Below the pieces are notes generated by a model. It was not told the origin of the DNA. It saw nothing but the letters and a program-made list of their open reading frames with translations, and did not search any database. 30,723 nt of DNA from a virus (taxonomy: Duplodnaviria > Caudoviricetes): the IMG/VR virus record IMGVR_UViG_3300012346_000100, positions 1 to 30,723 of that record; one strand, 5' to 3'. A program made the position numbers and the translations under genes. Every line of letters begins with the position of its first letter. The first letter of the stretch is position 1. Positions 3,073-30,723 of this stretch are shown here, piece by piece.

Positions 3073-3088
3073 TTAAACAACAATAACA

Positions 3089-3322
3089 ATGGAAAACGGA
3101 AAACAACCAATTACACCAATTAACTATGACGCAGCTTATAGTTCTAAAAGGTTAACCAAGCGTGAATACTTTGCAGGATTAGCTATGCAAGGGATTTTAG
3201 CATCTAATACAGAAGGTTTAGCACACGGCAGAATAGATATACCTGGCTTAATACAATGTGCTGTTATAGCAACAGACGCACTACTTGCTGAATTAGGAAA
3301 ATCTAAACAACAAGAACAATGA
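3089..3322 (+). CDS. Conserved phage hypothetical protein (LTKREYFAGLAMQG type)
   Basis: Motif recalled from many phage small proteins; ends KQQEQ. Confidence 0.75.
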   Translation: MENGKQPITPINYDAAYSSKRLTKREYFAGLAMQGILASNTEGLAHGRIDIPGLIQCAVIATDALLAELGKSKQQEQ

Positions 3323-3403
3323 AAAAACTATGGAAGCAAACTACATAATTGGGGATTGGCTTCTAAAATATCAGAAAATGAATTAACCTTTAAACAACAA
3401 TAA
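3319..3403 (+). pseudogene. Frameshifted mini-cassette remnant
   Basis: ATG frame stops after 9 codons, while the +1 frame runs to ...ELTFKQQ* at the next junction repeat. Confidence 0.45.
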
Positions 3404-3404
3404 A

Positions 3405-3545
3405 ATGAAAGAAGATTTAGTAGCATTAACAATAGTAGCAGTAATGTTTTTTGGGCTATACATTGGAGCAGTAATTAATCAATTATTAGGCGGAGCTATT
3501 TTTTTAGTGTCAATAGTATTAGCCCTTAAACAACAAGAACAATGA
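3405..3545 (+). CDS. Small membrane protein (46 aa, not in track)
   Basis: MKEDLVALTIVAVMFFGLYIGAVINQLLGGAIFLVSIVLALKQQEQ*. Confidence 0.7.
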   Translation: MKEDLVALTIVAVMFFGLYIGAVINQLLGGAIFLVSIVLALKQQEQ

Positions 3546-3721
3546 ACACTAAAAAAACAATTTTAATAGTATTTTTGGCTACTATTTTATCACTTATTAT
3601 ACCTATTATAGGTAAATGGTACGAACAAAAAACAGGTATTTCAGCACTTCCATTTTATATAATTTGTGTATCTATTACTACTTTTATGCTTTTTAAAATT
3701 TTTTTTGAAGATGAATACTAA
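3542..3721 (+). CDS. Small two-TM membrane protein (59 aa, not in track)
   Basis: MNTKKTILIVFLATILSLIIPIIG...FYIICVSITTFMLFKIFFEDEY*. Confidence 0.7.
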   Translation: MNTKKTILIVFLATILSLIIPIIGKWYEQKTGISALPFYIICVSITTFMLFKIFFEDEY

Positions 3722-3983
3722 ACAACGAAAAGACTTAGATTTAACTTTAGCGTTAACTTTACAGATGCAGTCAATACTTCACACCTTAGACGAACTATCT
3801 CACGAAGTAATCTACAAACGTGAGTTTAAACAACGATGTGAGAACTTTTACACGTGGGTTGAAAAGATAGTTGAAAATGTAAGCGAACAACTACCAGAAG
3901 ATACCGCTCAAAGATGGGTTGACATTGTTAATGAAATTGATAAAATTGTTCAAAAGATTCAATTGTTTGAAGATGAAAAGTAG
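3711..3983 (+). CDS. Hypothetical helical protein
   Basis: Start reassigned to ATG 3711 (MNTKQRKD). Confidence 0.7.
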   Translation: MNTKQRKDLDLTLALTLQMQSILHTLDELSHEVIYKREFKQRCENFYTWVEKIVENVSEQLPEDTAQRWVDIVNEIDKIVQKIQLFEDEK

Positions 3984-3994
3984 ATAGTATATTG

Positions 3995-4002
3995 TATATT
4001 TG
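3995..4002 (+). promoter_or_regulatory. Bacteroidota housekeeping-sigma -7 box
   Basis: TATATTTG matches TAnnTTTG; intergenic, upstream of replication operon. Confidence 0.75.
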
Positions 4003-4085
4003 CATTGTTCGTGCCGGAACGTGAAAAAATTTAGTTTAGCTCTTATCCGATAGGTCGGCACAACCTTGACGATAGGGGCTTTTTT
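4003..4085 (+). ncRNA. Structured cis-leader: two hairpins with complementary loops; second is terminator-like
   Basis: Loops GTGCCG (4011-4016) and CGGCAC (4056-4061); stem 4038-4047/4071-4080 followed by T-run. Confidence 0.6.
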
Positions 4086-4104
4086 AATGCTTAAAAATAA
4101 AAAT

Positions 4105-4293
4105 ATGAAAGCAAAATTTTACTATGTACCAGATTTATTGCTGGTAATCAATTTAGAACAATTAAGTTCTTTTCAAAGAGCAAGACCAATTAACAACGAT
4201 TCAGTTCCTTACAAGTGTTGTTTAGTAGTTGGTAAAAGCATTTTTTGGTGCGATGAAACAAATTATTATAATCTTATTTGTTTAGTGTTATGA
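4105..4293 (+). CDS. Hypothetical protein
   Basis: Start reassigned to ATG 4105 after A-rich leader; ATGA overlap with initiator. Confidence 0.6.
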   Translation: MKAKFYYVPDLLLVINLEQLSSFQRARPINNDSVPYKCCLVVGKSIFWCDETNYYNLICLVL

Positions 4294-5018
4294 GCGGTTG
4301 GATAAAATTACACAGACAAATTAGAAGCCATTGGGTATATAAAAATGCAAATTATTTTAAGGCTTGGGTTGCTATCATATCAGAGGTAAATCATAAATCT
4401 ACAAAGGTTATTATTGAAGGAGAATTAATAGAGTGTAAACGAGGTCAAAGTATAAATAGTTTAGCTACTTGGGTTAGGATTTTAGGAGATGAATGGACTA
4501 TTCAAAAACTTAGAACATTTTTAAAATTACTTGAAAAAGATAAAATGATTAACACGGAAGGGCTACGAAAAACAACACGACTAACTGTCTGTAATTACGA
4601 GAGTTATCAAAGTGAGCAACAAGGAGACAACAAGCAAACAACAAAGAGACAACAAGGAGATAACAAGGAGATAACAACAAACAAGAATGATAATAAAGAA
4701 AAGAATGAAAAAGAAGTGTTATTAGATGAATGGATTTCATATAGAAAACAGATTAAAAAACCTTTGACTTCTGCATCTATTGAAAAATTAAAAAACGAAA
4801 TGTCTTTGTATTCTGATGAAAAGTGTAAGTTTGTAATAAATACTTCTATAAGCAACGGATGGCAAGGTTTGTTTTGGGATAAATACACAGAACAACCTAA
4901 ACAACAAAAAAAAGAATTTGTGTTTAGAAATGGCGAAGGAATGACTCAAGAAGAATTGAATCAGTACGCAAAAGATTTAGTAGCATATAGACTCACTCAA
5001 ATAGCAGAAAATGAATAA
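4290..5018 (+). CDS. Phage replication initiator (lambda O / DnaD-like)
   Basis: MSGWIKLHRQI N-terminus, RGQ and wHTH-like region, low-complexity linker, C-terminal W..YRK..K.PLT...SI.NGWQGLF; upstream of helicase. Confidence 0.75.
   Translation: MSGWIKLHRQIRSHWVYKNANYFKAWVAIISEVNHKSTKVIIEGELIECKRGQSINSLATWVRILGDEWTIQKLRTFLKLLEKDKMINTEGLRKTTRLTVCNYESYQSEQQGDNKQTTKRQQGDNKEITTNKNDNKEKNEKEVLLDEWISYRKQIKKPLTSASIEKLKNEMSLYSDEKCKFVINTSISNGWQGLFWDKYTEQPKQQKKEFVFRNGEGMTQEELNQYAKDLVAYRLTQIAENE
4619..4673 (+). repeat. Five tandem 11-bp iteron-like repeats (putative origin)
   Basis: ACAAGGAGACA/ACAAGCAAACA/ACAAAGAGACA/ACAAGGAGATA/ACAAGGAGATA. Confidence 0.7.
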
Positions 5019-5961
5019 CGTATTCGAATACCAAGAGATAGAAAACTCTATATTTGAGCATTACAAAAGCGGTGGCGGAAAGACTTTTTATTTAGGATTT
5101 CCAAACTTGGCAAAGCATTACTCAATAATGGAAGGGAGTAGAACAGATTGGACTGGTTATCCTGGAAGTGGTAAGACAGAACTACTACTTGAATGTTTAG
5201 TTAACACTTCTGAATGGTACGGACATAAACACTTAATACATATGCCAGATGCTGGAAGCACATCCGAAGTAATCGCTAAGATAATGCACAAAATGAGTGG
5301 TAAGCAGTTTAAAGAGTTCTATTACAATGCACAAGGCGAAAAGGTTAAGATTGAAAATAGACTTACTGAGTTAGAAATAACACGCTTACTACCTAAAGTT
5401 TTAGATAAGTTTATAATTTACAAGCCACAAGGCAAAGCAAGTAAAGCAATAACACCAAAAGAACTTTGGCAATTCGGAGCAGATAACAAAAAAGAGTTAA
5501 ATTTGTTCTCAGTAGTTATTGATAGTTGGAACTATATGCGACACGAAGTAACAAGCGGAATGAGGTACGACCAATATTTAGAAGATGTGTTGAGTTTTGG
5601 TAATGATTTATGCGAAGCAAGTAAATTGCATTTTCATACTATTATACATCCTAAAAGCCCAGTTAAGATTAATGGAAAAGCACAAATTCCAGATATGCAC
5701 GAATTAAAAGGCGGTTCGGAATGGGGGAATAATGGTAAAAGCATTATAATTGTACACCGAGATTTTGATTCAGTAGTAACAGAGATAAAAGTTAACAAAG
5801 CAAAGCCAGAAGTTATTGGAGTTCGTGGAGTAACGAGTTTGATGTATAACGTAAAGACTGGAAAATTCAACGAAGATGGCAACATAGCAAAACCATTGAA
5901 AGAAACGCACACGCAGATAGCAATAGCACCGAATAATTCATTTGATAGTTTACCATTTTAA
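5011..5961 (+). CDS. SF4 (DnaB/T7 gp4-like) replicative helicase
   Basis: Walker A GYPGSGKT, Walker B VVIDSW, IIHP, ELKGGSEW. Confidence 0.8.
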   Translation: MNNVFEYQEIENSIFEHYKSGGGKTFYLGFPNLAKHYSIMEGSRTDWTGYPGSGKTELLLECLVNTSEWYGHKHLIHMPDAGSTSEVIAKIMHKMSGKQFKEFYYNAQGEKVKIENRLTELEITRLLPKVLDKFIIYKPQGKASKAITPKELWQFGADNKKELNLFSVVIDSWNYMRHEVTSGMRYDQYLEDVLSFGNDLCEASKLHFHTIIHPKSPVKINGKAQIPDMHELKGGSEWGNNGKSIIIVHRDFDSVVTEIKVNKAKPEVIGVRGVTSLMYNVKTGKFNEDGNIAKPLKETHTQIAIAPNNSFDSLPF

Positions 5962-5971
5962 ATAATAAGAT

Positions 5972-6586
5972 ATGAAAGTAACAGATAAAATAACAATAAC
6001 TCAAGAGGACAATATGCTATTAATGGCTCGTTATCCTGATAACTATTTTGACTTGGCTATTGTAGACCCGCCTTATGGGATAGGTATAAGTTCAAATCCA
6101 GTTAGGCAACAACATAAAAAAAAGAATTGGGATGATGAAATACCTTTAGAGAAATATTTTAATGAATTAAAAAGAGTTTCTAAAAACCAAATTATATGGG
6201 GTGGAAATTATTTTATTGATTATTTAAATAATTCTCAAGGATTTATAATTTGGGACAAAAAACAACCTGAAAACTTTAGTTTAGCAATGGCAGAATTTGC
6301 TTATAGTTCAATTCAAAGTCCTGCAAAAATATTTAGATATTCAGTTTTAACAGAAAAAAATAAAATACACCCAACTCAAAAACCTGTAGCACTTTATAAA
6401 TGGATTTTAGACAAATACGCAAAAGAAAATGACAAAATACTTGACACACATTTAGGAAGTGGAAGTATTGCAATAGCTTGTTATGATTATGGATTTGAAC
6501 TTACTGCTTGTGAGTTAGATAAAGAGTATTACGATAAAGCAATACAAAGAATTAAAAACCATACTAACCAACAAAAATTATTTTGA
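5972..6586 (+). CDS. DNA N6-adenine/N4-cytosine methyltransferase (beta class)
   Basis: DPPY, HPTQKP, ILDTHLGSGS. Confidence 0.92.
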   Translation: MKVTDKITITQEDNMLLMARYPDNYFDLAIVDPPYGIGISSNPVRQQHKKKNWDDEIPLEKYFNELKRVSKNQIIWGGNYFIDYLNNSQGFIIWDKKQPENFSLAMAEFAYSSIQSPAKIFRYSVLTEKNKIHPTQKPVALYKWILDKYAKENDKILDTHLGSGSIAIACYDYGFELTACELDKEYYDKAIQRIKNHTNQQKLF

Positions 6587-6876
6587 AACAGATAGCAATA
6601 ATAGAAGCATCCATAACATTTGAATCGTTAACGCAGTCTTTACATATTTCAATAGACGACATCAAAAAAAAGAATGCACATCGTACAGATTTAATTGAGT
6701 CAATGCAAAAGCACTTTGATTTTCTGCAAGACGCACGAACTACTTTTAACATTTTAGTCGATGAAAATAAACAATACCAAACATTACTATATTCAGAACA
6801 TAAAAAAGTAATGGAGTTGACAAGAGAATTAGAGCAGTTGAAAAAGATAAATAATAATTTAACAAATGGAATATGA
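6583..6876 (+). CDS. Hypothetical coiled-coil protein
   Basis: TTG start overlapping upstream stop. Confidence 0.65.
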   Translation: MKQIAIIEASITFESLTQSLHISIDDIKKKNAHRTDLIESMQKHFDFLQDARTTFNILVDENKQYQTLLYSEHKKVMELTRELEQLKKINNNLTNGI

Positions 6877-7100
6877 AAAATAAAGTAATAGATTTAACAT
6901 CTAAATTGAATATAGAATATGATATAACATTAAAAGCTACATTTTATTTAGATACAAGATGGTTATATGATGGTTGTATGGTTTTTTATAAAGATGATTT
7001 TTATAAAGTTGTTGATTGGTCATATTCTTTAATAGGGAATGAAGTAATGGCAAATGTTGAATTGACATTAGATAAAATATCAGTAATTGAAATACAATGA
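6873..7100 (+). CDS. Hypothetical protein
   Basis: 75-aa AT-rich ORF with ATGA overlaps. Confidence 0.65.
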   Translation: MKNKVIDLTSKLNIEYDITLKATFYLDTRWLYDGCMVFYKDDFYKVVDWSYSLIGNEVMANVELTLDKISVIEIQ

Positions 7101-7633
7101 AAACTAACTACGATAAAAAATGCAAGGAATGTGAAACGATATTCACACCTTACCGAACATTTGACAAGCTATGTTATGTTTGCACCAAGACAAAACAAGC
7201 GTTAAAAAATCTTGAAGCAATAAAAAAGACTACAAAGAAAAAACAACGTGAGGACTTGATGACATTACAAGACTGGTTTAAGATTGCTCAACAACACTTC
7301 AACAGATATATTAATCTAAGAGATAAAGGCAATGTATGTATATCGTGTCAAAAAAGAATAAACGGAGTAACACACGCATCGCATTACTATTCTGCTGGTA
7401 CGCATACAAACGTTAGATTTGACGAAAACAACGTTCATTCAAGTTGCTACAAGTGTAATGTACAATTATCTGGAAATCTAATCGAATACGGAATACACTT
7501 AGAAAACAAGATAGGAGCGGATGAATTTACTATGCTACGAGAACGTGCTTACATTACAAGAAAGTACACAAAAGATGAGTTAAAAGAACTTGCAGAGTAT
7601 TATAAAAGAAAATGTAAAGAATTTATACCATAA
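7097..7633 (+). CDS. NinG/Rap-like recombination endonuclease (HNH-type)
   Basis: AQQHFNRYINLRD..CISC, HASHY, RFDENNVHSSCYKCN..LSGN. Confidence 0.85.
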   Translation: MKTNYDKKCKECETIFTPYRTFDKLCYVCTKTKQALKNLEAIKKTTKKKQREDLMTLQDWFKIAQQHFNRYINLRDKGNVCISCQKRINGVTHASHYYSAGTHTNVRFDENNVHSSCYKCNVQLSGNLIEYGIHLENKIGADEFTMLRERAYITRKYTKDELKELAEYYKRKCKEFIP

Positions 7634-7720
7634 TTGATATAACTTATTAACAAATTAGCGTGATTGCATTGAATTGGGTATAACTTTTGAACAATTTATC
7701 ACGTCTTTAATACAATATTT

Positions 7721-7728
7721 TATATTTG
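7721..7728 (+). promoter_or_regulatory. Bacteroidota -7 box
   Basis: TATATTTG just upstream of ATG 7734; would drive the operon containing the sigma-like gene. Confidence 0.65.
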
Positions 7729-7733
7729 CAAAT

Positions 7734-7982
7734 ATGGAAGTACTATTTTTAATTTCTTTTGCGTGGTGGTTTGCTAATTTTGAGCCATTACAACGTCAAT
7801 TTGATAGGTTATTTTTACAGATTGAGGTCAATAAATACACCGATGCGATTTATTCCGCAGTTAGTTGTATGAAGTGCTTATCTTTTTGGTTCGCACTTTT
7901 TTATTTTCAAGACTTTTTTATGGCTTGCTTTGTTTCATTAATCGGATACACTATACAACTATGTTTGCAGAAACTGAAATAG
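7734..7982 (+). CDS. Small membrane protein with CxxC (CMKCLSFW)
   Basis: Hydrophobic segments; start reassigned to ATG 7734. Confidence 0.65.
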   Translation: MEVLFLISFAWWFANFEPLQRQFDRLFLQIEVNKYTDAIYSAVSCMKCLSFWFALFYFQDFFMACFVSLIGYTIQLCLQKLK

Positions 7983-8167
7983 AACTAATAGAAAAGCTAA
8001 GAGATGCTGACCCAATTATAAAGTCAGCAAAAACAAGTTGCATAAAACTATCCGCTATTCGTATTCGAGTAACTGGAGAGAAAGAGAAAGAATGCTTTTG
8101 CAGTCAAGTAAGACGCAGAATTTGGATAAAAGACTTTTACAATTGGTATGATAGCATTACTAAATAA
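7961..8167 (+). CDS. Hypothetical protein with CFC motif
   Basis: Start reassigned to ATG 7961 (MFAETEIEL). Confidence 0.6.
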   Translation: MFAETEIELIEKLRDADPIIKSAKTSCIKLSAIRIRVTGEKEKECFCSQVRRRIWIKDFYNWYDSITK

Positions 8168-8663
8168 CTACATATCGAAAAACTACGATGAAATAAACCG
8201 ATATACTCGGTATTTTGTCAGTAGATTAAATTCACAACTTGACATTGATACGATTATAAACAACGCTTACATTAAAGCAAGTGAATCTAAGTACGAGTAC
8301 AAAGAAGAACACGAAGCAAAAGCAATGTTTCTGCATTTAATCAAATGTGAATTACTATGGCAGTCAGACTCAAAGAAAGAGATTATAAATTCAGTTGAAA
8401 ACGAATACATACCAGATTCAATTGATGATTCACTTGAAGACGAAATAAAGTTCAGTGAAAGGTTGGAGATATTAGAAAATTATAGAGGTCAAATAACGGA
8501 CAGAATTAAGTTAATATTCTTTGAAACGTATTTTGATAAGAGAATTTCTACCAGTCGCACGATTGCTAAACATTTTAATATAAGTAACACATCCGCACAT
8601 TTTATGATAGTTGAGATGTTAGAGTCAATAAAACATTTTGAAAAGTACGGACAATATAAATAA
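8148..8663 (+). CDS. ECF-like sigma factor / late transcription regulator
   Basis: 171 aa; region-2-like D.IINNAYIK and C-terminal HTH SRTIAKHFNISNTSAHFMI; located before terminase. Confidence 0.6.
   Translation: MIALLNNYISKNYDEINRYTRYFVSRLNSQLDIDTIINNAYIKASESKYEYKEEHEAKAMFLHLIKCELLWQSDSKKEIINSVENEYIPDSIDDSLEDEIKFSERLEILENYRGQITDRIKLIFFETYFDKRISTSRTIAKHFNISNTSAHFMIVEMLESIKHFEKYGQYK
8631..8658 (+). promoter_or_regulatory. Putative phage late promoter 1
   Basis: AAACAT-N14-ACAATATA. Confidence 0.6.
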
Positions 8664-8669
8664 AACGAT

Positions 8670-8999
8670 ATGAAGATTAAAGAAGAATACAAAGGACAAA
8701 CGATAACTATTAACGATGGAATTTTAGGTATGATAAAAATAGACTTAAACACTATTAAACCAATGCAACAAAGAAGACTTATTGCATTAGGTTACACGCA
8801 TTTATTTGAAGATGAGAAAGAGGTTGTTTCGCACGATGACTTAATCGAATTGCACGAGGACAAAACAGAAGAAATTCTTGAATCTTTACACGAAGCTGGT
8901 GTAAATGCATTTATTGATATTTATGCAGATGGAATGAAAAAGGCTATTGAATCTCAAAAAGCACTAGTAAAGAAAACAAGACGTAAAAAGTCAGTATGA
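8670..8999 (+). CDS. Hypothetical protein
   Basis: 109-aa ORF, basic C-terminus. Confidence 0.7.
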   Translation: MKIKEEYKGQTITINDGILGMIKIDLNTIKPMQQRRLIALGYTHLFEDEKEVVSHDDLIELHEDKTEEILESLHEAGVNAFIDIYADGMKKAIESQKALVKKTRRKKSV

Positions 9000-10711: not shown

Positions 10712-10739
10712 AAACGAAATTTAAAATCAAAACAATATA
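10712..10739 (+). promoter_or_regulatory. Putative phage late promoter 2
   Basis: AAACGA-N14-ACAATATA. Confidence 0.7.
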
Positions 10740-10755
10740 AATAAAAACAAAAGAA

Positions 10756-18494: not shown

Positions 18495-18922
18495 TGGCAA
18501 CATTTAAAGTAAAATATGCTACACGTAATAAGTTAGCAAGGTCTTTGCAAAAAGAGATTAGAGACTTAGGTCTTATAGATTTTGGAACTTTATACGATTC
18601 GATACGAATATCTGCAATGACTGGAGATGAGTTGAATAAAATCAACATTACTATTAACGCAATGTTTTACTATTTGTTTTTAGATGAGGGAACAAGTAGA
18701 GGTATTCAACCATATTCAATTACTGACAAATGGCTACAACGTGGAGACGTAAAAGATATACTTGCAGAAGTTACACAAGAATACATCGCTTGGCAGTTTG
18801 AAAAATATCCAATACTTGAAATGGCTAAGATTCTAAACAACCCAGTTGTATCAATTAAGTTTAATTGGATTGATTCGCCTTATCCAAACCTACCAACTGC
18901 ACCGACAACGGCATTCTTTTAA
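18494..18922 (+). CDS. Putative neck/tail completion protein (HK97 gp10-like)
   Basis: DFGTLYDSI...YYLFLDEGT..IQP pattern. Confidence 0.55.
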   Translation: MATFKVKYATRNKLARSLQKEIRDLGLIDFGTLYDSIRISAMTGDELNKINITINAMFYYLFLDEGTSRGIQPYSITDKWLQRGDVKDILAEVTQEYIAWQFEKYPILEMAKILNNPVVSIKFNWIDSPYPNLPTAPTTAFF

Positions 18923-19650
18923 AGTTGTAGTTCAGTCTTCATTGATAGCATATTAAAAGCAAAGATAAGATTCATTTTAAGGACATCGTCAATCTTGGTA
19001 ATGTCCTCATTTGCTAAGATGTAAAGCGTTTTCTCCCACGACCATTTGTTTAGATTGTCTTCTTTCTTGATTTCTTCTTTTTCCTCATCGGTCAAATCTT
19101 CTTCTATGTCGTCTGTTGCTGGTTCTTGAAATAGATTGATATATACTTCCATAAAGTTTTCACGGAATTTTATATACTCTTGCACTATTCCGAATACATC
19201 GGTGCATTTTACATCTTTAAATAGTTGTTTTCTTTGCTCAATATCGTACTCGTAAGGCTCAATTACTTCATTATCCCACTCATCAAAACGTTTCTTTCTG
19301 TAAACAACACTACAAATGTCCGACAAATGAGCATAATAGTTATTAGTAAAGTAGTGTTCTAAGTCTATAAACTCTCCAACTTTTAAATGTTGTAAACCTA
19401 TGTAGTGCAAATCGGAAATTATCCGATTTATTGGTTTATTTGGGTCACGATTTATGAAGTTAATCTCTTTTATTAGTTCCGTTAACTCGTCAAAATCCAA
19501 ATCGTATACATCATTTATGTCAGTATCGGATAAGATGCTTATTGCTTCTACGTGAAAATCAAATATAGAATCGAAAGAGTCAACTTGCAACCCTTTCAAT
19601 TCCATAAATTGTTCTACACTTACGTTATTCCACGACTTCGGTAGGTGCAT
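18919..19650 (-). CDS. Putative tail assembly chaperone, long form
   Basis: LPKSWNNVSVEQF start; paralog of 19625..20173 with extra C-terminal domain. Confidence 0.5.
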   Translation of the reverse strand: MHLPKSWNNVSVEQFMELKGLQVDSFDSIFDFHVEAISILSDTDINDVYDLDFDELTELIKEINFINRDPNKPINRIISDLHYIGLQHLKVGEFIDLEHYFTNNYYAHLSDICSVVYRKKRFDEWDNEVIEPYEYDIEQRKQLFKDVKCTDVFGIVQEYIKFRENFMEVYINLFQEPATDDIEEDLTDEEKEEIKKEDNLNKWSWEKTLYILANEDITKIDDVLKMNLIFAFNMLSMKTELQL

Positions 19651-20173
19651 TTTGTAGTCTGTTAGATAATTTTAAACCAATAAATGTAGCGTAAGGTATC
19701 GCAAGTTCAGCAGAAAGTGAACTAAACAATTTAGCCTTTTGTTTGATGTGTGCATCTGCGTAGTGTTCAGCTTTAGTTAAGTCGTTACGCTTAAACAATA
19801 TCGACATCAAGTAGCTAATATAATTGTGTGGATGGTTAGATACTTGCTTCTCAATCATTTTCATTTCACGCACTGATATTTTCAATTCGTCTTCGTGCGA
19901 TGTGTAAGTATACCCATCTAACTCGATCACTTTACAAAACTCGTTTGATGGTTTTACTTTAGTGTCTGAGAATATCTTAATATATTCCACAAACTCGCTA
20001 AACTCCAAATCGTATACATCGGATTCTGGTACACCTAAATAAATTAAAAGGTTAGCCCAACGTTCAAACTTTTCTACTTCCTCATCATTTAAAATGCGAG
20101 AAACATTCTCGAACTGCTCAATTGTAAATTCATTGATTTCGTTCTTAACATCAAATTCTTTAATTTTTACCAT
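19625..20173 (-). CDS. Putative tail assembly chaperone, short form
   Basis: Shares EQF and DVYDL(D/E)F motifs with 18919..19650. Confidence 0.45.
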   Translation of the reverse strand: MVKIKEFDVKNEINEFTIEQFENVSRILNDEEVEKFERWANLLIYLGVPESDVYDLEFSEFVEYIKIFSDTKVKPSNEFCKVIELDGYTYTSHEDELKISVREMKMIEKQVSNHPHNYISYLMSILFKRNDLTKAEHYADAHIKQKAKLFSSLSAELAIPYATFIGLKLSNRLQNAPTEVVE

Positions 20174-22798: not shown

Positions 22799-22801
22799 GT
22801 T

Positions 22802-24432: not shown

Positions 24433-24938
24433 TATATTTTATTACTGAAAACTATTTAAAAACACAAACACCGATAACGGCAAATTGTGATGTTAACGAT
24501 ATTGTGCCATACATCAAGACTCAATCAGATTTAAGAATACAACCAATATTAGGAACGTATTTTTACAATGATATTTTAGCAAAGTACAACGCACAAACAT
24601 TGTCAGCAAACGAGGAGATTCTTGTAACTTATATTCAACCAATTGTTGCGTGGAGAAGTGCTGAAGATGCAGTCTTTGGTTTATCTTATCAGCTTAAAAA
24701 TAAAGGTCTACAATTACAGAATGGCGACTATTCTAATTCAGTTAGTCAACAAGAGGTTGCTTTTGCACAAGACCACTACGGACAAAAGGCATCTTTTTAC
24801 GAGGCTCGTTTGGTAAACTATTTACATACAAATAAAGATTTGTTTGCAAACTTTACAAGCGTATTGAATAAGGATAGTGACATTCGACCAACACACAACC
24901 CAGATAATGGTTACACCGATTCAATTATGGTAATATGA
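24429..24938 (+). CDS. Putative head-tail adaptor
   Basis: Follows portal; YIKTQSD..IQPILGT helical pattern. Confidence 0.55.
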   Translation: MIYFITENYLKTQTPITANCDVNDIVPYIKTQSDLRIQPILGTYFYNDILAKYNAQTLSANEEILVTYIQPIVAWRSAEDAVFGLSYQLKNKGLQLQNGDYSNSVSQQEVAFAQDHYGQKASFYEARLVNYLHTNKDLFANFTSVLNKDSDIRPTHNPDNGYTDSIMVI

Positions 24939-25372
24939 TTAAAGTAATAGCATCAAATTTAACCATTCTTTTAAAGGTATTAGTTGTATTCTTTGCACCA
25001 ATTAAAGGCATTATAATACTTGTTGCATTATCTACTATTTTAGATACTGCATTTGGAGTATGGAAAGCGAGTAAGTTAAAAGAGAAAGTAAACTCTAAGA
25101 CATTCCGTCACGGATTCGTTCCAAAATTGATGAGTTACATTGGTGCTATTATGTTAGTATACGCTTCTGATTTCTTCATCATTAATTACTTGACAAAAGA
25201 AGTTATAAGCGTTGATTATTTAGCTACAAAATTAATTGCTTTAATGCTTATTAGTATTGAGGTAAAAAGTATGGATGAATCTTTTGAAAAAGTAAAAGGA
25301 TATTCTTTTATTAGTAAGATTGTAAAGCTAATTATCCAAGCTAAAGACGTAAAGAAAAAACTTGCAGAATGA
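24935..25372 (+). CDS. Holin
   Basis: About 3 TM segments, LDTAFGVWKA, EVKSMDE, basic C-terminus. Confidence 0.75.
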   Translation: MIKVIASNLTILLKVLVVFFAPIKGIIILVALSTILDTAFGVWKASKLKEKVNSKTFRHGFVPKLMSYIGAIMLVYASDFFIINYLTKEVISVDYLATKLIALMLISIEVKSMDESFEKVKGYSFISKIVKLIIQAKDVKKKLAE

Positions 25373-25815
25373 AAATAGACGTTAAGCATTTAATTACAAT
25401 GATATTCGTTTGGGCGTTATCAATTTATTTAGTATTTTATTTTACTTCTTGTTCTGCTAAATGGCATATCAATAGAGCCTACAAAAAAGGTGTAAAGTTG
25501 GAGCAAACAAGCGACACCATCCGCATCACATCAATTGACTCGTTTAAAGTAGTTTTAAAAGATACTTTTTACTTCGAGAAGTTTCTTACCACAAAAGACA
25601 CAATCATTCGTTACAAACGTTTATATGTACCTAAAACACGATTTGAAACAAGAATAGAATATAAACTTAAACGAGATACGTTAAGACTTGAAAAGGTTAA
25701 GATACGCAAAGAATATAGAACTAAAACAAAGCCATTTCCGTACACGCTTTTATTAATTGTTATTGGTTTAGTATGTATTACGATAATTAGTTTTATATTT
25801 AAGCCAAAATTTTAA
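25369..25815 (+). CDS. Putative unimolecular spanin
   Basis: Signal peptide with lipobox FTSC, C-terminal TM; lies between holin and endolysin. Confidence 0.6.
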   Translation: MKIDVKHLITMIFVWALSIYLVFYFTSCSAKWHINRAYKKGVKLEQTSDTIRITSIDSFKVVLKDTFYFEKFLTTKDTIIRYKRLYVPKTRFETRIEYKLKRDTLRLEKVKIRKEYRTKTKPFPYTLLLIVIGLVCITIISFIFKPKF

Positions 25816-25816
25816 T

Positions 25817-26275
25817 ATGAATCTAAGTAAAAACTTTTCACTTGCAGAATTATGCAACTCGCATACTGCTAAAAAATTAGGAATTGATAACACGCCAAAC
25901 GAAATTGAAATTGAAAATTTGCGTTATTTGTGTTTAAAAGTATTGCAACCTTTACGAGATAATAAAGGACAAGCAATAAATGTAAACGTAGGGTTTAGAA
26001 ATAGAAAATTGAACAATGCAGTAGGCGGTTCATCTACTTCATTCCATTTAAAAGGTTGTGCGGTTGATATTGATAATGATAATACCGAAATTTCAAACAA
26101 AGAAATATTTGAGTATATTAGATTAAACTTACCTTATACAGAGTTAATTTGGGAAAGAGGTACTGCATTAAATCCAGCTTGGGTACACGTAGCAATTGTA
26201 CGAGGTAGAGAAAACGAGAAAGAAACGTTAATTACAAAAGACGGGAAATCTTATAAACCTTACAAACCACTTTAA
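25817..26275 (+). CDS. Endolysin, peptidase M15A family
   Basis: LSKNFSLAE, R...LN.AVGG..S.H..G.AVD, WVHV. Confidence 0.9.
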   Translation: MNLSKNFSLAELCNSHTAKKLGIDNTPNEIEIENLRYLCLKVLQPLRDNKGQAINVNVGFRNRKLNNAVGGSSTSFHLKGCAVDIDNDNTEISNKEIFEYIRLNLPYTELIWERGTALNPAWVHVAIVRGRENEKETLITKDGKSYKPYKPL

Positions 26276-26289
26276 TTAGTGGTTTTTTT
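26264..26289 (+). terminator. Intrinsic terminator
   Basis: AAACCACT-TTAATT-AGTGGTTT plus T-run. Confidence 0.7.
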
Positions 26290-26308
26290 ATTTACTTAAA
26301 TTTTATTT

Positions 26309-27025
26309 ATGGAGCAATACAGGCCAAGATTATCTGCTGAAGAATACAATCTAATTTTAAAGCATAGAAACGATAAAGAAAATAGGGTATTAGTTATTGG
26401 TGATTTACACGAACCATTTTGCCTTGATGGATATTTAGAGTTTTGCCAAGAACAATACAAAAAGTACAATTGCAACAAAGTAGTATTTATAGGTGATGTA
26501 ATAGATAATCACTATTCAAGCTACCACGAAACAGATGCTGATGGTTTATCAGGTGGGCAGGAATTAGATTTAGCGATTGAGAAATTAGCTAAATGGTATA
26601 AAGCGTTCCCTGTAGCAGATGTAACTATAGGTAACCACGATAGGTTAATTATGCGTAAAGCACAAACTTCTGCAGTACCGAGAAAGTGGATTAAATCATA
26701 TAAAGAAGTCTTAGAAGTGCCACAATGGAACTTTACAGAACGTGTTGTTATTGATAATGTACAATATATACACGGAGAAGCAGGTACTGCAAAGGCTAAA
26801 TGTAGAGCAGATATGATGTTAACCGTACAAGGACATTTGCACACGCAATGTTATACAGAATGGTTTGTAGGCGCTAATTTTAGAATATTTGGCACTCAAG
26901 TAGGTTGTGGTATAGACCACGAATCATACGCTATGGCATACGCTAAAGCAGGAAAAAAACCTGCAATAGGATGTGCAGTAATAATAAATGGTGAAACTTC
27001 TATTAATTGTTTAATGAATTTATAG
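26309..27025 (+). CDS. Calcineurin-like metallophosphoesterase
   Basis: GDLH, GDVID, GNHD, HG, GHLH. Confidence 0.9.
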   Translation: MEQYRPRLSAEEYNLILKHRNDKENRVLVIGDLHEPFCLDGYLEFCQEQYKKYNCNKVVFIGDVIDNHYSSYHETDADGLSGGQELDLAIEKLAKWYKAFPVADVTIGNHDRLIMRKAQTSAVPRKWIKSYKEVLEVPQWNFTERVVIDNVQYIHGEAGTAKAKCRADMMLTVQGHLHTQCYTEWFVGANFRIFGTQVGCGIDHESYAMAYAKAGKKPAIGCAVIINGETSINCLMNL

Positions 27026-27026
27026 T

Positions 27027-27034
27027 TATATTTG
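27027..27034 (+). promoter_or_regulatory. Bacteroidota -7 box
   Basis: TATATTTG with no + strand ORF before the next terminator. Confidence 0.6.
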
Positions 27035-27117
27035 CACGAAATCTGCTTTTCTGTTTGCTGATTTTCATAGTTTTTTAGTTTAATTGTTAGAAGTGGGGAG
27101 AAATCTCCACTTTTTTT
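27035..27117 (+). ncRNA. Putative small RNA
   Basis: Bounded by -7 box and terminator; contains antisense start-region segment TTTTCATAGTTTTTTAGTTTAATTGTT. Confidence 0.5.
27091..27117 (+). terminator. Intrinsic terminator
   Basis: AAGTGGGGA-GAAA-TCTCCACTT plus T-run. Confidence 0.85.
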
Positions 27118-27204
27118 ATGCTCTGAAACCCGCATAAACATTTGAAAACTAAAAATAATTTAAAAATAATTGTTAAAAAGTATTGCAGTTATAAACAAAA
27201 TGCT

Positions 27205-27212
27205 TATATTTG
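27205..27212 (+). promoter_or_regulatory. Bacteroidota early promoter
   Basis: TATATTTG with TTG at 27183-27185 (19-nt spacer). Confidence 0.75.
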
Positions 27213-27235
27213 CTGAAACATTTAAACTTTATAAT

Positions 27236-27418
27236 ATGAAAACATTACACAACACTTTTAATCCTAACTATGTACCAACTACAATTGAGAATGAGTACGT
27301 ACCAAAAGGAAACCACATTAACGATGCTATCAGAAAGCAATTTTTTACTACGTTTGATGTGCAAAGATTGAACAGAATTAGAGAAATTAAGTTAAACAAT
27401 TTAAACGAAAAACGATGA
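27236..27418 (+). CDS. Hypothetical protein
   Basis: Start reassigned to ATG 27236, downstream of promoter. Confidence 0.65.
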   Translation: MKTLHNTFNPNYVPTTIENEYVPKGNHINDAIRKQFFTTFDVQRLNRIREIKLNNLNEKR

Positions 27419-27630
27419 ACTATAAACTACACAACAAAGCAACTGACTTATTAGTATTGCACGCAGAAATGAAAGCAAGAATTGATTGGCTTGTATTAAG
27501 TTTTACTGGAGCTTCATTATTTCCTGATTTACAAGCAAAGTATTTTAACAGAATAGACACTTGCAAACGTGGACTTGAAAGAATTGAACAAGCTTATATC
27601 AAAGTATTAACCGAAATATTAGCAGTATGA
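27415..27630 (+). CDS. Hypothetical protein
   Basis: 71 aa, ATGA-coupled. Confidence 0.7.
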   Translation: MNYKLHNKATDLLVLHAEMKARIDWLVLSFTGASLFPDLQAKYFNRIDTCKRGLERIEQAYIKVLTEILAV

Positions 27631-27788
27631 TAGAAGTAGAATGTGAAAGATGCGAAGGCTATGGAATTATAGAAGCCGAAAAAGATTGTACACTACCAGC
27701 TTCAATGTGTTGTGGTGGATGTACAGAATTTATTGAGTGTCCTACTTGCGATGGATATGGAGAAATAGAAATAGAAGAAGAAATTTAA
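27627..27788 (+). CDS. Cys-rich DnaJ-type zinc-finger mini-protein (53 aa, not in track)
   Basis: CERCEGYG...C......CCGGC...CPTCDGYG. Confidence 0.75.
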   Translation: MIEVECERCEGYGIIEAEKDCTLPASMCCGGCTEFIECPTCDGYGEIEIEEEI

Positions 27789-27799
27789 ATCAGAATAAG

Positions 27800-27892
27800 A
27801 TGGGAGTGGTTTTTTTAATAATGTTTGGAGTTTTAATATTTGCAACTAGAAATAATAAGTCAGATTACATGAAGCGTAAGGAAAATAAATAA
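27800..27892 (+). CDS. 30-aa single-TM peptide (not in track)
   Basis: MGVVFLIMFGVLIFATRNNKSDYMKRKENK*; preceded by AATAAGATGG junction. Confidence 0.5.
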   Translation: MGVVFLIMFGVLIFATRNNKSDYMKRKENK

Positions 27893-27907
27893 CTAAATAA
27901 AAATAAG

Positions 27908-28333
27908 ATGGAAATACAAGATTTTATAGACAAGGTTAATCAAAAAATTGATAGCGAATTACTATGGTGTGGTGGAGACAGAAATAAATCTTCTGAAATG
28001 AAAAATTGGAGAAAAGCATATTCAGACGTCAAAAAATGGATGAAAGAATTGAGCAAAGAAATTAACCAATTAGATGATGAAAATTTAAATGATAATAAGA
28101 TGGAACAAACAGCAGTAGAATGGTTTGCAGATGAAATAACCAAAAGAGGACCAACAGAAAATAATCCACCACAATGGCTAATAAAATTATATGAACAAGC
28201 CAATGAAATGTTTGAGCAACAGATTATTAATGCTTGGACTGATGCAAAATATTGCAATACAATAGGTAATGAAATAAATTACAAAGATGGCGAACAATAC
28301 TATAACGAAACCTTTAAACAACAAGAACAATGA
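27908..28333 (+). CDS. Hypothetical; apparent fusion with internal start at 28100 (MEQTAVEW family)
   Basis: Internal AATAAGATGG junction; ends TFKQQEQ. Confidence 0.7.
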   Translation: MEIQDFIDKVNQKIDSELLWCGGDRNKSSEMKNWRKAYSDVKKWMKELSKEINQLDDENLNDNKMEQTAVEWFADEITKRGPTENNPPQWLIKLYEQANEMFEQQIINAWTDAKYCNTIGNEINYKDGEQYYNETFKQQEQ

Positions 28334-28455
28334 AATCAATAAATACATTAATAATAATTATTGCCTCAATAATTATTATAGTATCAAGTATTAATTTAAT
28401 TAGGGCAATAAAAGGATATAAACAATTTAAAAAAGAAAACAATGAAAATAGTTAA
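28330..28455 (+). CDS. 41-aa single-TM peptide (not in track)
   Basis: MKSINTLIIIIASIIIIVSSINLIRAIKGYKQFKKENNENS*. Confidence 0.6.
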   Translation: MKSINTLIIIIASIIIIVSSINLIRAIKGYKQFKKENNENS

Positions 28456-28477
28456 TCAATGGTAAACAACAAGAACA

Positions 28478-28684
28478 ATGAAAGAAAATTTTGAAGTAAA
28501 AGAACAAGGAAATAACAATAATACACTGTTATCTGCAATTAAATTAGCTTATCACCAATACAAACGTGATTTATATTTTGTAAAGAACAAAAGCAATATA
28601 TGGGAAGGTAAACCTTATAGATGGGGATTAACTCATTGGGCAATTGCTAAAAACAGATTTTATTGGTTTGTTATTAAACGTTAA
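28478..28684 (+). CDS. Hypothetical protein
   Basis: Flanked by junction repeats. Confidence 0.65.
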   Translation: MKENFEVKEQGNNNNTLLSAIKLAYHQYKRDLYFVKNKSNIWEGKPYRWGLTHWAIAKNRFYWFVIKR

Positions 28685-28696
28685 ACAACAAGAACT

Positions 28697-28786
28697 ATGA
28701 AACTGACAGCAGTAAAAATTTTAGATTGGGTTTTAAGAAGATTTGATGATTATAATTCAGACTTTAAAATAAACGGAGGTATTTAA
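28697..28786 (+). CDS. 29-aa peptide (not in track)
   Basis: MKLTAVKILDWVLRRFDDYNSDFKINGGI*, between two junction repeats. Confidence 0.5.
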   Translation: MKLTAVKILDWVLRRFDDYNSDFKINGGI

Positions 28787-28802
28787 CTAAACAACAAGAA
28801 AA

Positions 28803-29042
28803 ATGAAACAAACAGCAGTAGAATGGTTTGCAGAAAGAATACAAAGTGATAAAATATTTAACTTTGAAAATGTATTAAAACAAGCCAAAGAAATGGATAA
28901 GGAGCAGAAGATTAGTTTTTACGTAAAAGCTTTTACAAGTTTTTTATCAGAGGAAAGTTCAGAACCTTACCATGAAGTTATAGCGGAACATGGTAAAGAA
29001 CAAGCAGAACAATACTACAACAAAACCTTTAAAAACAAATAA
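28803..29042 (+). CDS. Hypothetical protein (MKQTAVEW...EQYYNKTF family)
   Basis: Paralog of 28100..28333. Confidence 0.75.
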   Translation: MKQTAVEWFAERIQSDKIFNFENVLKQAKEMDKEQKISFYVKAFTSFLSEESSEPYHEVIAEHGKEQAEQYYNKTFKNK

Positions 29043-29043
29043 G

Positions 29044-29247
29044 ATGGTAATAGATAGAATAGTACTAAACGTAATTAAAAAGTTCGAAAGACGAGCAGAC
29101 GAGGGTTTAAAAAAGTACGGAGTTACTTTAGAAAGAACCGATTTAAACACCCTTGATTGGATTAATGAGGCACAGCAAGAAGCAATGGACTTTTGCTTGT
29201 ATTTGGAAAGATTGAGTGTAGACATTAAAAAACAACAAGAGCAATGA
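29044..29247 (+). CDS. Conserved phage protein, possibly all-alpha NTP-pyrophosphatase-like
   Basis: R...GLKKYGVTL.R.DL...DW...AQQEAMD...YLE; start reassigned to 29044; ends KQQEQ. Confidence 0.55.
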   Translation: MVIDRIVLNVIKKFERRADEGLKKYGVTLERTDLNTLDWINEAQQEAMDFCLYLERLSVDIKKQQEQ

Positions 29248-29633
29248 ATTTAATTAAGATTACAGAACTGATTGAAAGATATGAACTAAATACAAGTTCA
29301 AGAAAACGTGAAAAAGTGTACATAAGAAGCGTATTATATCACTTTCTACGCAGTAACAAAATGACACTGGATAGAATCGGTAAAATGTTTGGCAAAGGAC
29401 ACGCAACAATTTTGCACGGCTTAGAATGTTACGATAGAAATAAAAACTACCCAGACTTTAAAGAGTTAATTTCTTTAGTAGAAAACGAGTTAGAAGTTTC
29501 TTGCATTGATATACCAGACGAAGATAAGCTACAATTAACAGAAGCAGAGTTGGATATATTAGAAGCTAATTCATTGCAGGACTTTTGGCAAGTAAAAAAT
29601 AATTTGATAAAAAAGTTATCAATTAAAGAATAA
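29244..29633 (+). CDS. DnaA domain IV-like HTH DNA-binding protein
   Basis: SRKREKVYIR....YHFLR...TLDRIGKMFGKGHATILHG matches DnaA C-terminal signature. Confidence 0.7.
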   Translation: MNLIKITELIERYELNTSSRKREKVYIRSVLYHFLRSNKMTLDRIGKMFGKGHATILHGLECYDRNKNYPDFKELISLVENELEVSCIDIPDEDKLQLTEAELDILEANSLQDFWQVKNNLIKKLSIKE

Positions 29634-29637
29634 TGTT

Positions 29638-29645
29638 TATATTTG
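29638..29645 (+). promoter_or_regulatory. Bacteroidota -7 box
   Basis: TATATTTG intergenic; would drive the recombination operon across the circular junction. Confidence 0.7.
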
Positions 29646-29676
29646 TATATGTTATTAACAATTTAAAACTAAGAAA

Positions 29677-29862
29677 ATGAAAAAAGAAGAACAACCAGAT
29701 TTTAAGCGTAGTTTGTTTGATTTCGCTGAAAACTACGTCAAGACAAATGATGAATTTCATAAGGAACGTAAAGAGATGCTAAAAATGATTGATAAAGGTT
29801 ATGAATTACAATTAGTTCATTTGCGAAAAGGTAGTCAATTAATGTGGTGTAAAAAAAAATAA
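29677..29862 (+). CDS. Hypothetical protein
   Basis: 61 aa after promoter. Confidence 0.65.
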   Translation: MKKEEQPDFKRSLFDFAENYVKTNDEFHKERKEMLKMIDKGYELQLVHLRKGSQLMWCKKK

Positions 29863-29874
29863 ATAAAAATAAAA

Positions 29875-30237
29875 ATGAAAACAAATGAAGAAATTATAAA
29901 AGAATTGTATTGCAACGTATTGTTAAAATCAATGTCTGGTGCAAGTGTTGAAATTGCTATTAAAGACGCTGAATTAGCAGTAACAGCGTTTAGTAATCAA
30001 TTTGAACCAGTTGATATTTTAAAACCAATAGATGATTCAATCATTAAAATATATAATCCTGAACAAGAAATAAATGTTTTGAACTCGCTAGTTAAAATGA
30101 GAAAATTTAGATTTAAAGGATGCAGTTATAGTTATTCAGAAACAAAAGTACCATCAACCGATTTAGGAGGTTTTCCTTATTGGTTAATAATTAATACTGA
30201 AGGAACTCTTCAAATAGAAACTAAAAACCCTAACTAA
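29875..30237 (+). CDS. Hypothetical protein
   Basis: 120 aa; 3' part duplicated at 1-212 with mostly synonymous changes. Confidence 0.8.
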   Translation: MKTNEEIIKELYCNVLLKSMSGASVEIAIKDAELAVTAFSNQFEPVDILKPIDDSIIKIYNPEQEINVLNSLVKMRKFRFKGCSYSYSETKVPSTDLGGFPYWLIINTEGTLQIETKNPN

Positions 30238-30249
30238 ACAAAAATAACA

Positions 30250-30387
30250 ATGAAAAATATACATGTATTGCCAAACATTCCACAAGAAAAACTTAAACAA
30301 GAGCTTCATATCTGTAAGTATTGCGGTGTTGAAACTACTCAATCTGATGATGAATGTTATGCTAAGACTAAACAACAAGAACAATGA
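30250..30387 (+). CDS. 45-aa CxxC mini-protein (not in track)
   Basis: MKNIHVLPNIPQEKLKQELHICKYCGVETTQSDDECYAKTKQQEQ*. Confidence 0.65.
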   Translation: MKNIHVLPNIPQEKLKQELHICKYCGVETTQSDDECYAKTKQQEQ

Positions 30388-30569
30388 AAATAAGATTTAT
30401 TAACGGGTCATGGATTAATGATGATTTAGATTTAATTCCAACAATTAAACTTAGAACAAGTAGCAGATTAAACCCAGAAACAAAAGTTAAAATTAATGGA
30501 ACAAGTATAGCTTTGTGTTGGTTGAAATGGGGTGTTATGTTATTTATTGGTAAAACTAAACAACAATAA
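30384..30569 (+). CDS. Hypothetical protein
   Basis: Between junction repeats; ends KQQ. Confidence 0.65.
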   Translation: MKIRFINGSWINDDLDLIPTIKLRTSSRLNPETKVKINGTSIALCWLKWGVMLFIGKTKQQ

Positions 30570-30570
30570 A

Positions 30571-30723
30571 ATGAAACAACCAAACAAAGATGAAATCGAA
30601 AAGCTATTAACACTTGTCGGAGTGCTTCCTGTTTTAGCTGATTTCATGGAGGATTTAAATAGTTCAGTTTTTACGCAGTCACTTAAAAACAAATGTAACT
30701 TGTTAATCAAAGAAATACGACAA
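30571..30723 (+). CDS. Hypothetical protein, truncated by window end
   Basis: MKQPNKDEIEKLLTLVGVLPVLADFMEDL...; open to end. Confidence 0.65.
   Translation, partial: MKQPNKDEIEKLLTLVGVLPVLADFMEDLNSSVFTQSLKNKCNLLIKEIRQ

Follow-up and report, generated by a model that had tools for sequence, protein, structure and literature searches.

It has long been asked whether linker sequences steer the mosaicism of phage genomes or whether joins occur at random and are then sorted by selection, and this question is raised in concrete form by the DNA analysed here (the window, 30,723 nt in full), in which an 18-base repeat, the 18-mer, recurs at the starts of small genes. The original prediction regarded this repeat as a single standard connector by which small genes are gained, lost or reordered while receiving a start site, with an ERF-family protein and an exonuclease as the engine. 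The evidence points to a gene joint with crossovers inside the 18-mer, which likely arise by general homology recombination with no dedicated enzyme.

A motif scan of the window located five exact copies, at 3304, 3527, 28315, 28463 and 30369, and the seven close variants claimed for it, of which those at 3074, 28682, 28788, 29229 and 30235 carry one or two mismatches while those at 3391 and 30557 represent a variant one base shorter, TAAACAACAATAAA followed by ATG. With up to three mismatches allowed, ten copies including the five exact ones are present, as opposed to 0.36 expected by chance, a count matched by none of 100 shuffles. All copies lie on the + strand, and ATG terminates 12 of 12 (ten full-length copies and the two short variants), in agreement with the predicted position at gene boundaries; the copy at 3304, however, opens only a remnant of nine codons.

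The left array (3074..3721, + strand) is flanked by conserved genes at 2890-3072 and 3711-3983, and its place is taken by other genes in the ten close relatives compared. It begins with a connector bearing one mismatch (3074..3091), which opens a 77-aa cassette gene (3089-3322) whose C-terminal KQQEQ and stop codon lie over the next connector, the exact copy at 3304..3321; the 9-codon remnant opened by the latter is either a decayed or a mini cassette. The short variant at 3391..3407 and the exact copy at 3527..3544 open hydrophobic genes of 46 aa (3405-3545) and 59 aa (3542-3721), respectively. In the right array (27800..29246, + strand), the exact copy at 28315..28332 closes a 141-aa gene (27908-28333) with a tail of the MxQTAVE family and opens a 41-aa gene (28330-28455), and a second exact copy at 28463..28480 opens a 68-aa gene (28478-28684). 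Connectors with one mismatch at 28682..28699 and 28788..28805 open a 29-aa gene (28697-28786), found in L046 and L277/L278 after an exact connector with different neighbours at 80-82% DNA identity, and a 79-aa MxQTAVE-family gene (28803-29042), a paralog of the C-terminal part of the 27908 gene. The array genes range from 9 to 141 aa rather than from 29 to 80 aa, and not all of them are unrelated. The MxQTAVE family gave zero matches in a PDB sequence search; three helices are predicted for the gene at 28803-29042, the model matches only uncharacterised phage proteins, none at E≤0.001, and all Atlas neighbours are hypothetical, so that no characterised relative was found. At the array border, the copy at 29229..29246 (two mismatches) does open a gene, but this is a conserved 129-aa gene (29244-29633) with a DnaA-C-type HTH (Pfam Bac_DnaA_C) that is retained in relatives, where it has other joints. 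In the close relatives L132, L139, L144 and L145, position ~27790-27803 joins 29028 directly and the right array genes are missing; other close relatives carry different genes there, so gene content is not fixed.

The third cluster (30235-30573) probably stems from a second, co-occurring phage whose DNA was fused to this contig during assembly, to judge from the sequence of the contig tail (30026..30723, + strand), which is a second allele of bases 1-217 (93% identity between 1-217 and 30026-30242) followed by a G014-type order of genes. Neither of the two co-occurring alleles is identical to that of the tail. The connectors at 30235..30252 (two mismatches), 30369..30386 (exact) and 30557..30573 (short variant) open a 45-aa gene (30250-30387; 98% identical counterpart in G014), a 61-aa gene (30384-30569) and a gene running from 30571 to the end (94% identical counterpart in G014), respectively.

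The anatomy of the repeat explains how cassettes could receive their predicted start from it, as proposed. A cassette extends from its own ATG to the next repeat, and 117 of 148 inter-repeat segments contain one ORF. Two of the three frames end within the repeat, one at a TAA in the frame of the ATG and the other with KQQEQ and a TGA that overlaps the ATG. Relaxed sites number 320 on one strand and 0 on the opposite one. Across 683 junctions picked at two mismatches or fewer, A is kept at -3, -6, -12 and -13 in at least 99%, whereas C/G positions are more variable; A at these positions is named among the start determinants of Bacteroidota (PMC6847099), and the 18-mer combines them with little structure, as Bacteroidota initiation regions do. 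It likely serves as a translation start of the Bacteroidota kind that brings its own stop codons. RNA data sets were absent from those listed as containing the stretch. A single G precedes the ATG, and a Shine-Dalgarno core is absent. An RNA structure or known RNA family was rejected, since folding of seven repeat contexts gave 0 to -2.3 kcal/mol (z 0 to 1.2) with no hairpin and an Rfam scan of the window returned no match. Promoter-like TATATTTG sites occur at 27205 and 29638, both outside the repeats. Very little probability attaches to the idea that the 18-mer is mainly a regulator binding site, a signal for translation or early genes comparable to the Start-Associated Sequences (SAS) of other phages, or a KQQEQ tag, with shuffling as a side effect: position, strand bias and accessory-gene bias are SAS-like (PMC3203893) and 67 of 148 segments end in KQQEQ and the ATGA overlap, but another 32 stop at the TAA before the tag, and G020, a close relative whose proteins are at the median 97% identical to those of the window, contains no copy within two mismatches. 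The repeat may still have a regulatory function alongside recombination. Silent third-codon A positions are near-invariant while first-codon positions vary, and KQQEQ as a selected peptide tag was ruled out for this reason.

In IMG/VR, the 18-mer occurs letter for letter in about 610 stretches, its reversed control in 4. Its carriers are uncultured phages, hundreds in number and belonging to three or more unrelated types (30 kb, 57-67 kb and 174 kb), which have few genes in common and nevertheless share cassettes at 88-95% DNA identity. The genes headed by it form 472 DNA clusters in the sample (Chao1 about 1,190). The family most widespread among carriers is the 67-aa gene at 29044-29247, present in 12 of 13 genomes and unassigned in function. 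The 185,579 prokaryote genomes searched yielded 58 single hits and no arrays; grouped by record title, 20 of 32 hits in Bacteroidota open an ORF of at least 60 aa as compared with 3 of 26 in other genomes, and one hit, in a Flavobacteriia MAG on a contig of 1.2 kb, is an MxQTAVE cassette. The hosts of the carriers are presumably Bacteroidota. As for cultured relatives, 50,697 phage records contained no meaningful match to 27200-30723 or to the repeat, and the best matches of the likely capsid gene reach only about 24%. A text search of openly available papers returned analogues only and not the 18-mer.

That breakpoints fall inside the repeat, as anticipated, is borne out by comparison with relatives; the genomes are metagenome assemblies, and identical contexts were collapsed before counting. 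When junctions sharing a downstream gene (at least 80% DNA identity) were paired, upstream DNA was unrelated in 261 of 291 pairs, the 5′ edge of the repeat marking a fall in identity from about 0.95 to 0.3, and the mirror test gave 216 discordant pairs out of 258. Repeat-less small genes within 900 bases served as an array-local control. Upstream neighbours were mostly discordant in 106 of 119 repeat-led gene clusters vs 25 of 132 repeat-less ones, discordant pairs amounted to 462/520 vs 314/803 (39%), and the stretch in common before the ATG had a median of 16 vs 3 bases. Filled and empty sites form 26 pairs spanning one to four cassettes, one pair at degenerate copies, and empty sites retain exactly one repeat. 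Gain, loss and reordering are accordingly seen (true reversals being 2 among 894 ordered pairs), and cassettes are also duplicated, in G001 and G007. The notion of a single standard connector is not supported as stated, as other A-rich start motifs also join array genes in close relatives.

It is unlikely that the 18-mer is no more than a strong signal for translation initiation, kept or re-evolved by selection, at which gene-boundary joins made by illegitimate recombination survive. Such an explanation would account for the A positions, for single copies at real starts in Bacteroidota genomes, for the use of other start motifs by relatives and for the change of neighbours among repeat-less genes. 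It is at odds with the core, where, in line with the original prediction, none of the 34 gene starts between 4105 and 26309 (genes for replication, packaging, structure and lysis), including that of the likely capsid gene, carries the repeat, and the closest differs by at least six mismatches over the 15 bases before the ATG. The exact form also outnumbers the three -11 variants combined (88 stretches), although A at -11 would start equally well by composition, and neither the one repeat kept at empty sites nor the longer shared stretch fits a mere start signal.

It is extremely unlikely that much of the shuffling arose from assembly errors at a repeat of 18-21 bases in mixed metagenomes, even though every sequence comes from metagenome contigs, the tail of the window itself looks like a chimera and the duplicated cassette of G001 sits at the end of a contig. 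The single cassette at 30383..30569 (187 bases, + strand) is precisely missing from contigs of three of four runs, belonging to three studies, in which 30382 joins 30570 with 154 bases on the shorter side (run contigs compared each contain at most 0.13 of the stretch's words), and several empty sites recur in separate contigs. Gene content differs even among relatives with terminal repeats. Fewer than 23 perfect bases are shared by 68% of unrelated junction pairs, less than the final word lengths of common assemblers, which argues against misassembly.

Perfect homology between unrelated junctions has a median of 21 bases, with 32% reaching 23 and 4% reaching 31. Efficient recombination is reported to take at least 23-27 bases with Red-beta and 31-34 with RecA (PMC3945230), so that events should be rare. 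Of the engine originally proposed, both parts are present, an ERF-family single-strand annealing protein (217..723, + strand) that may act as a general recombinase and is not specific to the repeat, and an exonuclease (phrog_5715; 1100..1783, + strand), but a 127-aa ORF, absent or replaced in most close relatives, sits between them. The role assigned to the pair is not supported: ERF is found in 19 of 33 records and in 0 of 12 above 40 kb, and 64 loci with a more distant ERF contain no exact 18-mer in 567 kb; ERF is therefore neither necessary nor sufficient for the repeat. Other carriers encode Sak-like or UvsX-like recombinases instead. No member of an SSAP family was recognised in G002, G003 or G007; the SSAP position of G002 is occupied by an unnamed gene.

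An unrecognised site-specific recombinase from host or phage, encoded elsewhere and cutting the 18-mer, is quite improbable. Short homology, a letter-perfect sequence in unrelated phages and the apparent departure of variant copies from exchange would all suit an enzyme that reads an exact sequence. However, tyrosine (PF00589) and serine recombinases were each found in 0 of 33 records, no recombinase family common to the three phage types was recognised in 13 genomes, which offered no candidate for a dedicated gene common to all carriers, and the site is asymmetric and unstructured. Only variants at -15 to -13 clearly accompany the upstream gene; variants inside the repeat seldom segregate with the gene on either side, which gives no sign of a fixed cut point, and mapping of a crossover base was dropped because positions beyond -15 to -13 were uninformative. 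The use of several other motifs as joints and the lack of arrays in prokaryote genomes weigh in the same direction. The A-rich tract would act as a Bacteroidota ribosome entry site. If general homology recombination is responsible, about 21 bases of perfect homology would be paired by an available recombinase (ERF, Sak-like, UvsX-like or that of the host) within one genome or between co-infecting phages, leading to deletion, insertion or unequal crossing-over. Since each gene keeps its start and stop, products would usually be viable and the joint would spread; mutated copies would leave exchange, which would keep the joint letter-perfect, and deletions are predicted to release one-repeat circles.

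Hundreds of natural junctions, set against a matched control, thus place the crossover inside one 18-base start/stop signal, and near-identical genes cross with this joint between phage types sharing almost nothing else. With the motif as a tag, several hundred accessory genes not yet characterised can be searched for. One tagged gene exceeds the Pfam cut-off for Tad8, an inhibitor of Thoeris, and the motif may therefore lead to counter-defence genes in phages of aquatic Bacteroidota. A bolder reading, which seems doubtful, is that the common 18-mer standard gives unrelated Bacteroidota phages an open library of over a thousand mini-genes, circles being moved by a pathway that would recognise the exact sequence, integron-like but without a known integrase; such a library, if real, would likely be rich in counter-defence proteins.

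Integron arrays comprise IntI, attI and attC, the last an imperfect palindrome forming a hairpin. The prediction of an integron-like array without IntI or attC is right in that neither recombinase class was detected in the 33 records, and there is a likeness in promoterless one-gene cassettes that move as units with one site each, are drawn from a common pool, are reordered and leave one site at an empty position. However, measured against integrons and CALINs, IntI was not detected in or near the array, nor an attC hairpin by folding and Rfam scan, and the 18-mer is a plain direct repeat. With neither hairpin nor integrase, the integron comparison is not supported as stated, and closer precedents exist. 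SAS, known from cluster K mycobacteriophages and Microbacterium cluster EF phages (PMC3203893, PMC7302621), share with the 18-mer asymmetry, a single orientation and a position before non-structural gene starts, and are over-conserved for a ribosome site. They are described as having a Shine-Dalgarno core and a proposed role in translation, not recombination, whereas the 18-mer has no such core 3-7 bases before the start, contains ATG and stops, and is where breakpoints map. Arthrobacter phages of cluster AU have a 32-bp repeat (bioRxiv 10.1101/2020.01.10.891226) that is likewise a short direct repeat flanking each small-cassette gene, with insertions, deletions and translocations; it is reported as intergenic and as flanking five genes in one cluster, whereas the 18-mer overlaps stop and start codons and heads its 472 downstream genes across phage types. 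The principle is already known from PeSL (promoter-early stem-loop) cassettes and boundary sequences, which limits surprise. PeSL of the T4-type phages RB49/phi1, for which the authors draw the integron comparison and excised circles were demonstrated (Arbiol et al. 2010, PMC2839356), are conserved regulatory repeats between small non-essential genes and a proposed homologous recombination site for ORFan gain and loss without integrase. They consist of a promoter and a terminator hairpin, both lacking in the 18-mer, a partly coding start/stop overlap common to three unrelated phage types. ORFan insertions, deletions and replacements are bounded by the repeat in the 18-mer arrays as well, and, as reported for the boundary/linker sequences of lambdoid phages (Botstein 1980, Clark 2001), a conserved repeat stands at both gene ends with the breakpoints within it.

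The window is unusually rich in copies of the 18-mer, a junction repeat whose last three bases are the ATG of the following gene. As originally observed, exact and near copies are present, five of each (chance expectation 0.36), along with shorter variants, one at 3391 and one at 30557; the copy at 3304 opens a 9-codon remnant and that at 29229 a conserved gene. The core likewise proved free of the repeat, with none of 34 core gene starts within five mismatches. In the first 129 loci and the window, a single ORF fills 117 of 148 unique inter-repeat segments; 67 segments end in KQQEQ with a TGA overlapping the ATG and 32 at the repeat's TAA, in frame with the ATG, so that the repeat closes two of three frames. 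It is unstructured (no hairpin), and in 98% of 207 contexts the next base after it is A. Within it, A stands at -3, -6, -12 and -13, positive determinants measured in Flavobacterium johnsoniae in the cited portion of PMC6847099. These four bases are retained in at least 99% of 683 junctions, and C and G positions vary (3-6%). Selection on translation alone, which such retention would suit, is considered unlikely, and comparison between loci places the breakpoints in the repeat. In each of 291 junction pairs the two members have their downstream gene in common; the upstream DNA is unrelated in 261 of these pairs, per-base identity dropping from ~0.95 to ~0.3 at the repeat's 5′ edge; the mirror test found 216 of 258 junction pairs discordant (both counts after collapsing identical contexts). 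Mean discordance is 0.87 for repeat-led small-gene clusters (n=44) versus 0.19 for others (n=293). In an array-local control limited to small genes at most 900 bases from a repeat, 106 of 119 repeat-led clusters are mostly discordant versus 25 of 132 repeat-less ones; the median number of bases shared before the ATG is 16 and 3, respectively. A regulator or tag role as the main reason for the repeat is very improbable.

Gene gain, loss and reordering, also foreseen, are evident from close relatives holding differing gene sets between the same anchor genes, with the order of two genes reversed between L134 and L137. In 26 filled/empty pairs, one to four cassettes are gone and a single repeat is left, and the window cassette at 30383-30569 is cleanly missing from contigs in three of four runs. 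Seven of 894 ordered cassette pairs occur in both orders, five via duplicated blocks (genomes G001 and G007) and two as true reversals. G007 carries the same cassette twice in one array (10945 and 11681), with different neighbours. A 651-base three-cassette block in G001 (172656-173789), duplicated at the contig end, could stem from assembly; misassembly as the explanation of the apparent shuffling at large is very unlikely. The 18-mer is the most frequent joint but not the single standard connector proposed: relatives also join genes at other motifs, among them TAAATAAAAAACTATG, used in 7 of 16 loci, and TTAAAACAAGATTTAAAATG, used in 6 of 16, and it is therefore the commonest of several. A second, AACAATTTAAAACTAAGAAAATG-like joint is found at 29655-29679 and 206-219 in the window; in 16 of 16 relatives (L130-L145) it lies just 3′ of a promoter-like TATATTTG. 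There, extra genes are inserted ahead of ERF, two in the window and a pentapeptide-repeat-like one in L135. Genes without the 18-mer are also inserted into the window's recombination module (720-1103 and 1786-2346) and are lacking or replaced in most close relatives.

The exact 18-mer occurs in ~610 stored IMG/VR stretches, as estimated from 13 of 64 parts, versus 4 for the reversed pattern, and with a trailing A in an estimated ~660 metagenome stretches; 185,579 prokaryote genomes yielded 58 single matches and no arrays. The site is present at up to two mismatches in 8 of 16 close relatives (ERF 94-99%; 13 sites, 7 exact), and the exact 18-mer in none of 64 more distant ERF loci. Carriers comprise at least three phage types: ~30 kb; 57-67 kb, with different terminase and portal families and GroEL; and a 174-kb phage, with tail sheath, clamp loader, its own polymerase and 21 repeat copies at no more than one mismatch. 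These types have 0-7 ORFs of at least 100 aa in common. The 174-kb phage nevertheless has a cassette in common with a 66-kb phage, at 88-95% identity, and 30-kb and 60-kb phages share cassette parts at 93-95% and one whole cassette at 78-79% identity.

Across 782 sequences, 791 unique junctions link 499 DNA clusters on the upstream side with 472 on the downstream side, in 755 combinations. Cassette proteins have a median length of 71 aa; among 426 clusters, 65 appear membrane-spanning and 109 belong to the MxTAVE family, mini-proteins of the pattern MxTAVE...AKEMEKEQ...YYNETFKQQEQ with three predicted helices. Pfam matches were obtained for 12 of the longest 150 of 174 eligible representatives, including Tad8, thioredoxin, YopX and MT-A70. 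Tad8 is a type II Thoeris inhibitor; the cassette gene matching it at locus L096 (545-775, reverse strand; 61 bits, cut-off 27) lies between two exact repeats. MxTAVE members are found at 27908-28333 and 28803-29042 in the window and at G003 33848, G021 2750, G022 26871 and G002 9737, and 111 of 624 junctions lead into the family. Members from unrelated phages have their back halves alone in common, at 93-95% DNA identity, which suggests half-gene swaps. The repeat may possibly have arisen where MxTAVE paralogs adjoined in tandem; the ends that such paralogs have in common would give longer homology. Very small cassettes, 59 or 81-82 bases long (MKHKSIT..., MQVWS...), recur in different phages (L134, G019 13123; L081 256; L019 49; L047 3234; L107 545) and may be either remnants or functional micro-peptides.

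The proposal that ERF and the 5′-3′ exonuclease drive the exchange found no support in that form: ERF is present in 19 of 33 records and in none of the 12 above 40 kb, and other carriers have a Sak-like protein with exonuclease VIII (G005), a UvsX-like protein (G001) or, in G002, an unnamed gene alongside exonuclease and SSB. This G002 gene (160 aa, phrog_21613; L416 7195-7677), in the SSAP position ahead of exonuclease and SSB, encodes a weakly ERF-like C-terminal tail and is a candidate unrecognised annealing protein. In G003 and G007, the Pfam models tried identified no general recombinase. Searching the 33 records turned up no tyrosine or serine recombinase, and a hidden site-specific enzyme acting at the repeat is quite improbable. 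Among repeat variants, those at -15 to -13 move together with the upstream gene, and internal ones seldom with either side, a pattern that shows no fixed cut point and is compatible with exchange between perfect copies. The perfect homology that unrelated junctions share is 21 bases long at the median, below the 23-27 for Red-beta and 31-34 for RecA in the cited part of PMC3945230; exchange should therefore be slow per cell, though plausibly still workable in large populations. Given that no integrase or resolvase was found in those records, the varied recombinases, the variant pattern and the plausibility of short-homology exchange, the likely reading is that homology-based recombination of a general kind acts at a start/stop joint that maintains itself.

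The window, an entire IMG/VR virus record (30,723 bases; GC ~0.32), encodes ERF, exonuclease, a DnaD-like protein, primase/helicase, terminase, portal, tape measure and endolysin. A Bacteroidota host is suggested by its A-rich starts and by promoter-like TATATTTG sites, the consensus in the cited text of PMC6847099 being TAHHTTTG. Positions 1-217 and 30026-30242 are 93% identical; close relatives continue from the 29244 gene and its promoter into ERF, with one extra gene interposed in L135; the gene order of 29666-30723 matches another phage (G014/L023); and the shared gene has two alleles in each of two runs, differing in depth and continuation. For these reasons the genome probably closes at ~30,025 bases. 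Although copies do occur in all three accessory clusters first noticed, the third (30235-30573) is thus probably the array of a second phage, and the duplicated ends bear on any count that treats the record as complete. Two reverse-strand genes within the structural region (18919-20173), preceded on their own strand by a TATATTTG site, share a 36-base repeat (19477 and 19985; 83%) and gave no PHROG or Pfam match. The DnaD-like gene contains 11-base tandem repeats (4617-4677), a feature typical of a replication origin.

The 18-mer did not occur in the literature searched. The arrays show neither IntI nor the hairpin site that integrons own, as the integron analogy had it, and integron membership fails. 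In the cited portions of the sources, PeSL cassettes (PMC2839356) and boundary sequences (bioRxiv 10.1101/2020.01.10.891226) resemble the repeat in mode of operation, and SAS (PMC3203893, PMC7302621) in placement; PeSL cassettes, however, own a promoter and terminator, and SAS, as described there, a Shine-Dalgarno, whereas the 18-mer has none of these and belongs to neither. Comparative data lend good support to a real repeat-based cassette joint, served by a putative enzyme and a variant of an already known principle.
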